Shown here: positions 42,483 to 44,078 of the stretch, one piece after another
Layout: each line of letters starts with the position of its first letter
Position numbering within the stretch: position 1 is the stretch's first letter
Origin: Candidatus Parcubacteria bacterium
GTDB lineage: Bacteria > Patescibacteriota > Patescibacteriia > Patescibacteriales > UBA12075
Reading direction: 5' to 3'
NCBI GenBank assembly: GCA_963814275.1
Contig: CAWFCE010000002.1
Span: forward strand, 298,537-362,536
DNA: 64,000 nucleotides
Made by a program: the position numbers and the translations under genes
The notes under the pieces: generated by a model
Database searches by the model: none
What the model saw: only the letters and a program-made list of their open reading frames with translations
What the model was told of the DNA's origin: nothing

Positions 42483-44078
42483 TAGAAAGGAGGTGATCCA
42501 TCCACAGCTTCCGCTACGGATGCCTTGTTACGACTTCACCCTTATCACCAGCCCTACCTTCGTCCGCGCTAGGCGCGGCCTTCGGGTATTGCCGGCTCTC
42601 TTGGTGTGACGGGCGGTGAGTACAAGACCCGAGAACGTATTCAACGCGTCGTGGCTGATGCGCGTTTACTAGCGATTCCAGCTTCATGGAGTCGAGTTGC
42701 AGACTCCAATCCGAACTGAGAGAAGTTTTTTGGGGTTTGCTCCACCTCGCGGTTTGGCGTCCCACTGTACTTCCCATTGTAGCGCGCGTGTCGCCCAAGA
42801 CGTAAGGACCATGCTGATTTGACGTCATCCCCACCTTCCTCCCACTTAAAGCGGGCAGTTCCCTATGACACATGAAACATAGGATAGGGGTTGCGCTCGT
42901 TTTCCGACTTAACGGTACATCTCACGACACGAGCTGACGACAACCATGCAGCACCTGTCTGGCACCCTCGAAGGCTCCCCTGTTTCCAGGGGTCTGCAGC
43001 CAGATGTCAAGTCTTGGTGAGGTTCCTCGCTTATCATCGAATTAAACCGCACGCTCCACCGCTTGTGCGGGTCCCCGTCTATTCCTTTGAGTTTTAAGCT
43101 TGCGCTCGTACTCCCCAGGCGGGATGCTTAAGGCGTTAGCTTAGGTAGGCAGCACTGACAGGGTCGAAACTGCCAATGCTTAGCATCCATCGTTTACGGC
43201 GTGGACTACTGGGGTATCTAATCCCATTCGCTCCCCACGCTTTCGTCCATGAGCGTCAGAACCGTTCTAGCAAGCTGCTTTCGCATTTGGTGTTCCTGCT
43301 GATATTAACGGATTTAACCCCTACACCAGCAATTCCGCTTGCCTCTCCCGGCCTCTAGCTCGGTCATCTCTCCCGCGGCCCATCGGTTAAGCCGATAGAT
43401 TTAACAGGAGATGCGCCGAGCCGCCTGCGGACCCTTTACGCCCAATAAATCCGGATAACGCTCGGGGCCCTCGTATTACCGCTGCTGCTGGCACGAGGTT
43501 AGCAGCCCCTTATTCAACTGGTACCGTCAGAAATTCGTCCCAGTTAAAAGTGGTTTACACCCCGAAGGGCTTCTTCCCACACGCGGCGTCGCTCCTTCAG
43601 CCTTTCGGCCATTGAGGAAGATTCTCGACTGCAGCCTCCCGTAGGAGTCTGGGCAGTGTCGCAGTCCCAGTGAGACGGGTCATGCTCTCACACCCGCTAC
43701 CCGTCAGAGCCTTGGTGAGCTTTTACCTCACCAACAAGCTGATAGGCCATAGGCCCCTCCCGAGGCGCCGGAGCTTTAAGTGGGAATGACATACGTCCCC
43801 CCACTAATATCGAGTATTATTCCGGATTTCTCCGGGTTATACTCGTCCCCAGGGTAGGTTACCAATGTGTTACTCTCCCGTTTGCCATGCTGTTGCTCCG
43901 CAACAGCACCGCTGATTAAACGCGGATTGCTACGCGGATTTTACGCCGATAAATATATCTGCGTAAATTCCGCGTTTTGATCTGCGTAAATTCCGCGGTC
44001 TATTGCGAAGCAATAGCATTCGACTTGCATGCCTTAGACACGCCGCCAGCGTTTATCCTGAGCCAGGATCAAACTCTC
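42483..44078 (-). rRNA. rrs: 16S rRNA (~1.6 kb) with a ~130-nt V1 expansion
   Basis: The 5' end is agagtttgatcctggctcaggat (plus-strand complement at ~44057-44078), and the 3' end is ggatcacctcctttcta (42483-42499). Conserved blocks are present: gtgccagcagcagcggtaatac and ttgtacwcaccgcccgtca. Ends are good to within ~5 nt. Confidence 0.9.

Follow-up and report, generated by a model that had tools for sequence, protein, structure and literature searches.

Why should one genome's genes for 16S and 23S rRNA, which lie apart and are read in opposite directions, carry inserts that look alike? The question arises in a 64,000-nucleotide (nt) stretch of a Candidatus Parcubacteria genome (contig CAWFCE010000002.1, positions 298,537 to 362,536), hereafter the window. 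It holds a full-length 16S rRNA gene on the minus strand (42486-44084; Rfam SSU_rRNA_bacteria, 1427 bits) and, on the plus strand, a 23S rRNA gene that is truncated by the window end (60541-64000; Rfam LSU, 2394 bits). The two genes are unlinked, with ~16.5 kb between their regions (41113-44084 and 60541-64000). Each hosts a tripartite module of hairpin, arm and hairpin, located at 43889-44016 on the minus strand in the 16S gene and at 62957-63101 on the plus strand in the 23S gene. A sequence-only reading of the window had suggested that these modules are a mobile or copy-paste element that colonises rRNA variable loops and intergenic DNA. Here we find that both inserts are homologous and belong to a single sequence family, the core of which is a 44-nt array that recurs across Patescibacteria, and that they probably belong to a palindromic repeat family with a nuclease gene as its candidate partner.

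Both inserts are placed with precision on the rRNA secondary structure. In the Rfam alignments, the 16S insert takes the place of the helix 6 (h6, variable region V1) loop, with 106 nt unaligned at model positions 79-83, and the 23S insert takes the place of the helix 68 (H68) loop, with 148 nt unaligned at model positions ~1892-1902. Mapping against the E. coli 23S rRNA puts the latter site after position 1864. The inserts are confined to the terminal hairpin loop in both cases, and the surrounding rRNA helices align well with their structure intact.

Read in the rRNA sense, both modules follow one order: a 7-bp hairpin with a UUC triloop, an array in the ACGCNGA orientation, a short loop, an array in the TCNGCGT orientation and a second 7-bp hairpin, whose triloop is GGA. 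In the 16S module, hairpin A (44000-44016, minus strand; CUAUUGC-UUC-GCAAUAG) forms the 5' end and is followed by the 5' arm (43956-43999, plus strand), a 44-nt array of four TCNGCGT units that matches the array profile described below over its full length (nhmmer E = 9e-12). The 3' arm (43908-43951, minus strand) is a second full-length 44-nt array, inverted relative to the first (E = 2e-13), and hairpin C (43889-43907, minus strand; GCUGUUGC-GGA-GCAACAGC) closes the module. The 23S module starts with hairpin A' (62957-62973, plus strand; UCGUUGC-UUC-GCAACGA) and a 44-nt 5' arm (62974-63017, profile match on the minus strand; E = 9.5e-10, full length). Its 3' arm (63021-63082, plus strand) is an array in two pieces, 63021-63041 and 63064-63082 (partial matches, E = 4e-4 and 6e-4), split by a nested GC hairpin, cctgagggcgaagcccgag, at 63042-63060, and hairpin C' (63083-63101, plus strand; GUCGUUGC-GGA-GCGACGAC) follows. 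When we re-read the sequence, all of the hairpins that the sequence-only reading had quoted were where it had placed them, as were the direct repeat cgcggaatttacgcagat, present twice in the 16S arm with a 23-nt period, the match of the two arm starts at 17 of 20 positions and the intergenic relative at 38191-38216.

Local alignment of the 16S insert with the 23S insert gave a score of 70, compared to 16.7 ± 2.6 (maximum 29) in 1000 dinucleotide shuffles (z = 20), and the two were ~73-81% identical in a MAFFT alignment; the likeness of the modules is far greater than chance would give. In addition, the repeat words had 10 matches in the window against 1.7 and 0.6 expected, and none of 100 shuffles reached 10 or more. 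An orthologous 16S insert with 94% identity and compensatory substitutions was found in an independent metagenome-assembled genome (MAG; L041, JAGLNE010000126; L-labels denote loci or assemblies from other genomes), which shows that the inserts of the window are no assembly artefact.

The array shared by the two modules is 44 nt long and consists of four TCNGCGT boxes at a spacing of 11/12/11 nt, with A/T-rich spacers and a last box that ends in GCGG. Two arrays inverted with their GCGG ends outward make up a ~90-nt hairpin-forming element; arrays are also found singly. A box-pattern scan of one genome per species yielded GC-rich chance matches plus ~55 low-GC loci, nearly all of them from Patescibacteria, also called the candidate phyla radiation (CPR), namely Saccharibacteria, Parcubacteria, Doudna-, Falkow-, Sungii-, Davies- and Nealsonbacteria. 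A T precedes the C of the box in 95-98% of cases at these low-GC loci, although the pattern did not demand it, and the spacers are A-rich. We built a profile from the low-GC matches, and an nhmmer search with this profile detected 92 arrays, spread over 53 loci and the window: 42 singles and 25 inverted pairs, 20 of which have the GCGG ends outward as in the rRNA arms. With a looser pattern, 70 of 76 arrays were intergenic. In many cases 4-15 nt separate the end of the array from a start codon (tuf, gap, rpsL, rplQ); other arrays begin 3-6 nt past a stop codon, come directly after an intrinsic terminator or lie ~60-87 nt 5' of a start. Recurrence of the same 44-nt array in ~55 CPR loci agrees with the earlier claim that independent expansion of variable helices is inadequate as an explanation.

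A known RNA family was ruled out as the source of the array, since Rfam 15, searched at the gathering thresholds and at E <= 10, gave only rRNA, tRNA and sub-threshold generic hairpins, among them miRNA precursor models that scored 27 bits where the cut-off is 51. A phage or viral origin is likewise unsupported, with 0 matches to the four-box pattern in IMG/VR. We found no description of the array family in Rfam or in the papers searched, and none of miniature inverted-repeat transposable elements (MITEs) or repetitive extragenic palindromic (REP) elements in CPR bacteria; to that extent the earlier remark that an insert common to 16S and 23S rRNA was not known to be described is borne out. 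Two array matches come from MAGs with labels other than CPR, one from Saprospiraceae (L066, 407-448) and one from Gammaproteobacteria (L005, 1449-1491); either CPR contigs were mis-binned here or the reach of the array family goes past Patescibacteria.

We also scanned metagenomes with hairpin A plus the first two boxes as the query. Hairpin-arm-hairpin modules were present in 23S helix 45 (H45) of L119, with identical UUC and GGA loops, in 23S helix 63 (H63) of L122, which matches the genome record L097, and between rpmJ and rpsM in L123. L122 has an additional array pair at 23S H45 and another after the 23S gene. The module thus occupies four rRNA helices (16S h6; 23S H45, H63 and H68) in at least three genomes, and this recurrence identifies the tripartite module as a genuine sub-type. 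The 7-bp triloop hairpins stand beside array pairs in the rRNA copies only, the sole exception being L123, where the module lies among ribosomal-protein genes. On this point the sequence-only reading had gone too far: the intergenic copies lack hairpins A and C, save in L123, and what is dispersed in intergenic DNA is the array, not the whole tripartite module.

To the eye of a folding program, the module looks different from what its local hairpins suggest. The minimum free energy (MFE) fold is a single long hairpin for both inserts, with A paired with C in the 16S insert (-74.9 kcal/mol, z = -9.8) and A' with C' in the 23S insert (-79.0 kcal/mol, z = -6.8), and the fold with three hairpins is 11-14 kcal/mol less stable. 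However, an alignment of five rRNA modules from the four helices supports the local hairpins: 100% of their cells are paired and 10 of 14 pairs are altered on both sides, a level of covariation equalled in 0 of 500 shuffles. For hairpin A by itself, 100% of cells are paired and 5 of 7 pairs show changes on both sides. The long-range A-C pairing holds in 91% of cells, with six cells broken. The aligned sequences favour local hairpins over the long duplex; as the MFE favours the latter, both folds are possible, and in the course of transcription hairpin A would be the first to form. Hairpin C, when reverse-complemented, is nearer to hairpin A than it is as read (loop TTC compared with TCC), which indicates that the whole module is one large imperfect palindrome rather than an element set in a duplicated target. 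Target-site duplication was accordingly ruled out as the source of hairpins A and C, because their relation is inverted and not direct.

Outside the rRNA genes, the arrays also enclose a protein-coding gene. In L013, L070 and L112, two full outward arrays stand ~400 nt apart, and the gap is filled exactly by an open reading frame (ORF) of 133-135 aa. The ORF matches PF13366 (PDDEXK_3) and TIGR04256 ('GxxExxY protein'), and the residues D71, E81 and K83 of the PD..ExK motif are invariant in 38 sequences. An AlphaFold model (pLDDT, the predicted local distance difference test score, of 89) gave weak, generic matches to the PD-(D/E)XK nucleases Cas4, Hjc and lambda exonuclease; a sequence search of the PDB with the GxxExxY protein returned no match. 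Three homologues that we fetched independently (P0007, P0037 and P0038; P-labels denote proteins) are encoded by genes likewise enclosed by inverted arrays, and in L077 the same gene adjoins an array, which was detected at its 3' end alone. The association with arrays therefore holds in 7 of 7 GxxExxY cases examined, in varied gene neighbourhoods, six of them being complete cassettes. The geometry of these six is tight: one array stops 3-11 nt before the ATG, and the opposite array overlaps the final codons and the stop of the gene. In P0007, P0037 and P0038 the distance to the ATG is 3-5 nt, and it is the first box of the opposite array that provides the final codons and the stop.

Paralogues of the GxxExxY gene at the same loci (30-38% identity) have inverted arrays around them in the same geometry but built from other words, for example ACGAAAT x4 (48 nt, 81% complementary) and ATCATATAA (32 nt, 88%). 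The flank of a paralogue in L112 (~1930-2058) carries AAATTCGTGAAATCCGTG, which contains AAATCCGTG, the word that builds the helix 25 insert in the 23S gene of the window (61324-61350); this shared word hints that other rRNA insert families may have GxxExxY partners of their own. The contig of the P0007 gene and that of the L122 23S gene with its three array modules have the same length, 262,036 bp, and are taken to be one, in which case one genome has both the nuclease cassette and the rRNA modules. On GxxExxY or PF13366 proteins, the papers searched offered essentially nothing beyond 'function unknown, multiple transfers'. We regard the GxxExxY nuclease gene, which the sequence-only reading had overlooked, as the likely, candidate partner of the arrays.

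The presence of arrays differs among close relatives. Three relatives (L141, L142 and L143) are syntenic with the window, with 77-81% identity in PilT and 85-95% identity in aligned blocks of 23S rRNA, and together they have one full and one partial array in ~55 kb. They have no arrays 5' of the bPH_2-domain gene and pilT, where the window is ~100-150 nt longer, and in L142 and L143 only 1-4 nt separate the bPH_2 gene from its upstream neighbour. The outer helix of H68 (TCGCUUCGCUA paired with UAGCGGAGCGA) is common to the window and L142, but the arm of L142 consists of TGACA/TGUCAAA words instead, and L141 has yet another insert at this site, which is AT-rich. The arrays are thus lineage-specific and the arm at a given rRNA site is replaced, a pattern that fits gain and replacement. 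The exact insertion boundaries were not definable, as the alignment with the 'empty' orthologous sites was too divergent. The idea of a mobile copy-paste module thus survives in part: the family occurs in rRNA and in intergenic DNA, relatives lack the arrays and one has a different H68 arm, but only the array is dispersed.

The H68 module is one of many inserts in the 23S gene of the window, which has at least five others totalling ~500 nt between 60773 and 62857; all inserts together add ~650 nt relative to E. coli 23S rRNA. The others are an insert after E. coli positions ~229-291, the helix 25 (H25) insert of ATCCGU words with an ~11-nt period (61226-61379), an insert after E. coli position 653 (61487-61539), an AT-rich H45 insert of CUAAAUC-like words (62045-62213) and an H63 insert of UGUCAAA words (62771-62857). 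Several of these share the layout of the H68 module, with an outer helix, a small hairpin, a periodic arm and a second small hairpin, and the arrays of ATCCGT-type and other words are restricted in the window to the 23S gene. In L119, two near-identical ~150-nt AT-rich inserts (10264-10418 and 10738-10888) follow E. coli positions 277 and 537 (H25), a second case of one module at two rRNA sites, built from a different word family. The 23S genes of L141 (14400-16153) and L142 (14625-15092) contain LAGLIDADG_1 homing-endonuclease ORFs, presumably in introns; the windowed part of the 23S gene has no LAGLIDADG_1 ORF.

Five arrays of the window stand alone in spacers. The one at 27838-27873 (minus strand; 3-4 units, nhmmer E = 6e-7) has a pseudouridine synthase gene on one side and a cytidylate-kinase-like gene on the other, and a half array of 2 units (38190-38214, minus strand; E = 1e-4) lies 3' of trmD, where the sequence-only reading had quoted an intergenic relative at 38191-38216. 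A full array (51682-51725, plus strand; E = 6.7e-13) separates a tRNA cluster from an RNase T-like gene, whose start is 74 nt downstream, and another array (54643-54684, plus strand; E = 3.8e-6) lies 5' of the bPH_2-domain gene. The fifth (58656-58722, plus strand; E = 5e-5), in the rnc-pilT spacer, is split by a nested GC hairpin and lies 76 nt before the true pilT start at 58798, a start set from P0121, an identical PilT. All five are oriented like their downstream gene. A shared regulon was ruled out, as these genes encode a cytidylate-kinase-like protein, an RNase T-like protein, a bPH_2 protein, PilT and one protein without a Pfam match.

Small GC-rich hairpins interrupt arrays in both settings, cctgagggcgaagcccgag in the 23S module and gcctgcctgccggcaggcagg (58689-58709) before pilT, and in L123 an array is interrupted by a ~40-nt piece (8668-8706). 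The nested hairpins suggest that arrays are themselves targets of further small insertions. Other repeats lie close by: three or four degenerate ones (e.g. ggctcagggcaggccctt, gctcggggcagaccctt and gctcaaggcaggctgccc) occupy 51560-51660, 3' of the tRNA cluster and just before the array at 51682. The RNase III gene rnc (57790-58482, plus strand; Pfam Ribonuclease_3 and dsrm domains), which is context and outside the element, is followed right after its stop, at 58483-58525, by words of ~8-nt period (GAATGACGAAT, TTACGAAT or TTAAGAAT). Words are found at the same position in L141, L142 and L143; they vary by genome while the position is constant, and next come an intrinsic terminator and the pilT promoter, which is of the extended -10 type. 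The genes nusB, rnc and pilT are directly 5' of the 23S gene, an order kept in the three relatives, and on the minus strand the 16S gene is followed by five tRNA genes.

How, then, did similar modules come to sit in two unlinked rRNA genes? On balance we think that the rRNA inserts probably represent a Patescibacteria-wide palindromic repeat family that is linked to GxxExxY and tolerated at rRNA helix tips. The full-length version would consist of inverted arrays tightly around a ~133-aa GxxExxY gene with a PD-(D/E)XK fold, and the nuclease would recognise its own arrays. The ORF-less palindromes would be non-autonomous derivatives that the nuclease spreads or maintains, much as in the pairs of REPINs (inverted REP doublets) with RAYTs (REP-associated tyrosine transposases) or of MITEs with transposases. 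Within rRNA genes, the element would be tolerated only at surface-exposed variable helix tips, here 16S h6 and 23S H45, H63 and H68, and the rRNA sub-type would be an inverted repeat lengthened at both ends by 7-bp triloop hairpins, with UUC as the 5' loop and GGA as the 3' loop. Its transcript may form a four-way junction atop the host helix or one long duplex, and the duplex would be a plausible RNase III substrate. Given that rnc is present, the inserts might either be excised like classical intervening sequences (IVSs) or be kept as expansion segments. We infer both the mobility of the arrays and their mobilisation by the nuclease. A bolder version, to which we give less than even credence, is that GxxExxY (PDDEXK_3) proteins are the enzymes of an unrecognised class of ~480-bp mobile elements, each with one nuclease gene flanked by two inverted four-box arrays, whose array words co-diversify with the proteins and whose ORF-less derivatives populate intergenic DNA of CPR bacteria and build many of the short 'uncharacterized' inserts and expansion helices in their 16S and 23S rRNA. 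Such derivatives would explain why modules are common to different helices of one ribosome.

Several observations weigh against the nuclease-linked repeat family. No GxxExxY gene was detected in the 64-kb window by tblastn or by a six-frame profile search, and the source contig (1,274,625 bp) contributes 0 of the 120 best GxxExxY homologues; alternatively, palindrome loops might be sites into which the gene inserts as a passenger. In the genome fragments, arrays of one locus share 0.46 of the 20 non-core positions, hardly above the 0.42 shared by arrays of different loci. The 23S 5' arm matches the 16S arms at 0.45-0.55 of these positions, compared with a mean of 0.43 for foreign arrays, which ranks 29 of 76. 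Recent copying from 16S to 23S is ruled out by this identity at the family background, and with it the notion of the two modules as a recent copy-paste pair; neither within loci nor between the modules of the window is there a sign of recent transposition. Inspection of the flanks of intergenic copies revealed no target-site duplication, and the array comparison across the genome fragments revealed no near-identical copies. Furthermore, the spacers of paired arms are complementary at 0.375 of positions, against 0.43 for unrelated arrays. Selection for hairpin complementarity of the arms is ruled out on this basis, and constraint appears to act on each array, for example as a protein-binding site, and not on the hairpin. 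The regular placement near starts and terminators could reflect a regulatory role and not selfish spread, and the UUC and GGA hairpins, which are almost confined to rRNA copies, are left unaccounted for by the model.

Much of this would be expected if the arrays were binding sites for a host protein, in double-stranded DNA or in RNA, that are kept for a host function, be it as a promoter-upstream element, an insulator or a signal for processing or stability, and are not mobile, with the rRNA copies serving as docking sites for the same factor. As such sites would, the arrays have conserved box cores with spacers and an N position free to vary; their boxes are phased at one helical turn, and the two arms do not covary. 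Their placement has a regulatory look, at 4-15 nt from the ATG in the case of tuf, gap, rpsL and rplQ, at ~60-87 nt from other starts, right behind intrinsic terminators or 20-30 nt 5' of sigma-70-like -35 boxes, as does the common orientation of the five single arrays of the window with their downstream genes. However, the same intergenic sites are free of arrays in relatives with a PilT protein 77-81% identical, the downstream genes are functionally unrelated and the orientation relative to neighbouring genes is mixed over the CPR loci. A host binding site would also not be expected to enclose a nuclease gene tightly, with paralogues of that gene having arrays of their own, or to have some of its copies inside rRNA genes. 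We consider this explanation unlikely; the diverged copies, the non-complementary spacers and the lack both of target-site duplications and of a GxxExxY gene in the window keep it alive, and mobilisation by the nuclease stays at the level of inference for the same reasons.

The helices could instead have grown independently, short words slipping on one strand and compensating slippage occurring on the other, a genome-wide mutational bias making similar words in 16S, 23S and spacers. The arms are indeed built with an 11/12/23-nt periodicity, including a perfect 18-nt direct repeat in the 16S arm, other inserts in the same 23S gene use other periodic words (e.g. ATCCGT at H25), the H68 arm differs in a close relative, and L119 has near-identical AT-rich inserts at two 23S sites. 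Slippage would not, however, rebuild a four-unit 11/12/11 GCGG array at dozens of intergenic sites in several CPR lineages, an identical array architecture around a nuclease gene, or identical UUC/GGA flanking hairpins at four rRNA helices. This dispersed, conserved architecture makes independent growth highly improbable. Misjoining of repeat-rich reads into rRNA genes was considered because rRNA genes and repeats assemble poorly from metagenomes, and no support for it was found. The orthologous 16S insert of the independent L041 assembly is 94% identical and shows compensatory substitutions, the genome record L097 and the Joint Genome Institute (JGI) contig L122 have the same 23S modules, the H68 site of L142 also holds an insert within the same outer helix, and both inserts sit exactly in a hairpin loop with the flanking rRNA structure intact. 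A chimeric origin, the artefact that the sequence-only reading had itself raised as a doubt, is therefore barely credible.

The nuclease-linked repeat family shares features with several known systems. Classical IVSs interrupt helices 25 and 45 of the 23S rRNA of Salmonella, Leptospira, Campylobacter and Coxiella, where RNase III excises them without re-ligation, and a small ORF (Pfam 23S_rRNA_IVP) for a four-helix-bundle IVS protein is present in some. The inserts of the window are similarly short, non-intron sequences at an rRNA helix tip with a long-duplex fold; the module occurs at H45, a classical IVS site, in other CPR genomes, and rnc is present in the window. The array family, like IVSs, comes with and without an ORF between the same inverted repeats and is patchy among relatives. 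By contrast, 16S h6 and 23S H68 are non-classical sites, the array family is also intergenic and has a four-box architecture, and the ORF linked to the arrays encodes a GxxExxY protein of PD-(D/E)XK type and was seen outside rRNA genes but never within one. For CPR bacteria, short inserts without an ORF at H25 and H45 have been described as uncharacterised, some of them being suspected IVSs of the RNase III type, with no mention of repeats, palindromes or a GxxExxY protein (Tsurumaki et al., 2024; PMC11270868).

In their genomic behaviour, the arrays resemble the REP/REPIN-RAYT system of Proteobacteria: they are short, imperfectly palindromic and almost only intergenic, occur singly and as inverted doublets, and have diverged outside a conserved core; a small gene lies between two inverted repeats, and its paralogues are paired with different repeat families. 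They resemble this system without being members of it, since the protein flanked by arrays is a PD-(D/E)XK protein (PF13366/TIGR04256) and not an HUH/Y1 enzyme, and since a REP is a single palindrome of ~20-35 nt with a GTAG head whereas the array here is a direct repeat of four units. We know of no report of REPs inside rRNA genes. Transcribed MITEs in structured or coding genes include the Correia elements of Neisseria, the hairpins of which are cut by RNase III, and the Rickettsia palindromic elements. Like these, the array pairs would be small non-autonomous palindromes with terminal inverted repeats that are tolerated at permissive gene sites and transcribed as a hairpin. Unlike with MITEs, no target-site duplication was found for the arrays and their copies are not near-identical, and the candidate autonomous partner, at ~480 nt with a 133-aa nuclease, is far smaller than known insertion sequences.

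Eukaryotic rRNA offers another parallel. Compensatory slippage is said to have been proposed by Hancock and Dover for the cryptically simple expansion segments of eukaryotic rRNA, in which, as here, motifs are common to the small- and large-subunit variable regions of one organism and the build is periodic; the motif in the window differs in being a discrete element that is also found outside rRNA and around a nuclease gene. In CPR bacteria, rRNA genes reportedly (Brown and colleagues, in 2015) contain group I and II introns with LAGLIDADG or GIY-YIG homing endonucleases, and the inserts studied here come from the same clade with its heavily interrupted rRNA genes. They differ in having no ORF and a length of ~130-150 nt, and they fall in a class left 'uncharacterized' in a study that also treats the CPR group I and II introns with homing endonucleases (Tsurumaki et al., 2024; PMC11270868). 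No Rfam intron family matched the window at gathering, and nothing relevant matched the 23S module at E <= 10. The finding fits best as IVS- or expansion-segment-like in position and fold and as REPIN- or MITE-like in genomic behaviour, with GxxExxY as the candidate partner.

At least one class of uncharacterised short CPR rRNA inserts now has a defined architecture, a family, a genome-wide repeat and a candidate enzyme. Such inserts affect the 16S-based detection of CPR bacteria and rRNA-based binning. They also lead to a prediction for the ribosome itself: either the rRNA would be fragmented, or the ribosome would carry protrusions on the 30S spur (h6) and at H45, H63 and H68 of the 50S subunit. 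Should the nuclease be causally linked to the arrays, this would give a role to the large GxxExxY/PDDEXK_3 family, to which none has been assigned so far, it would extend a REPIN/RAYT-like partnership to another nuclease fold, and it would provide a mechanism by which ribosomal expansion and intervening segments originate and are swapped from helix to helix.

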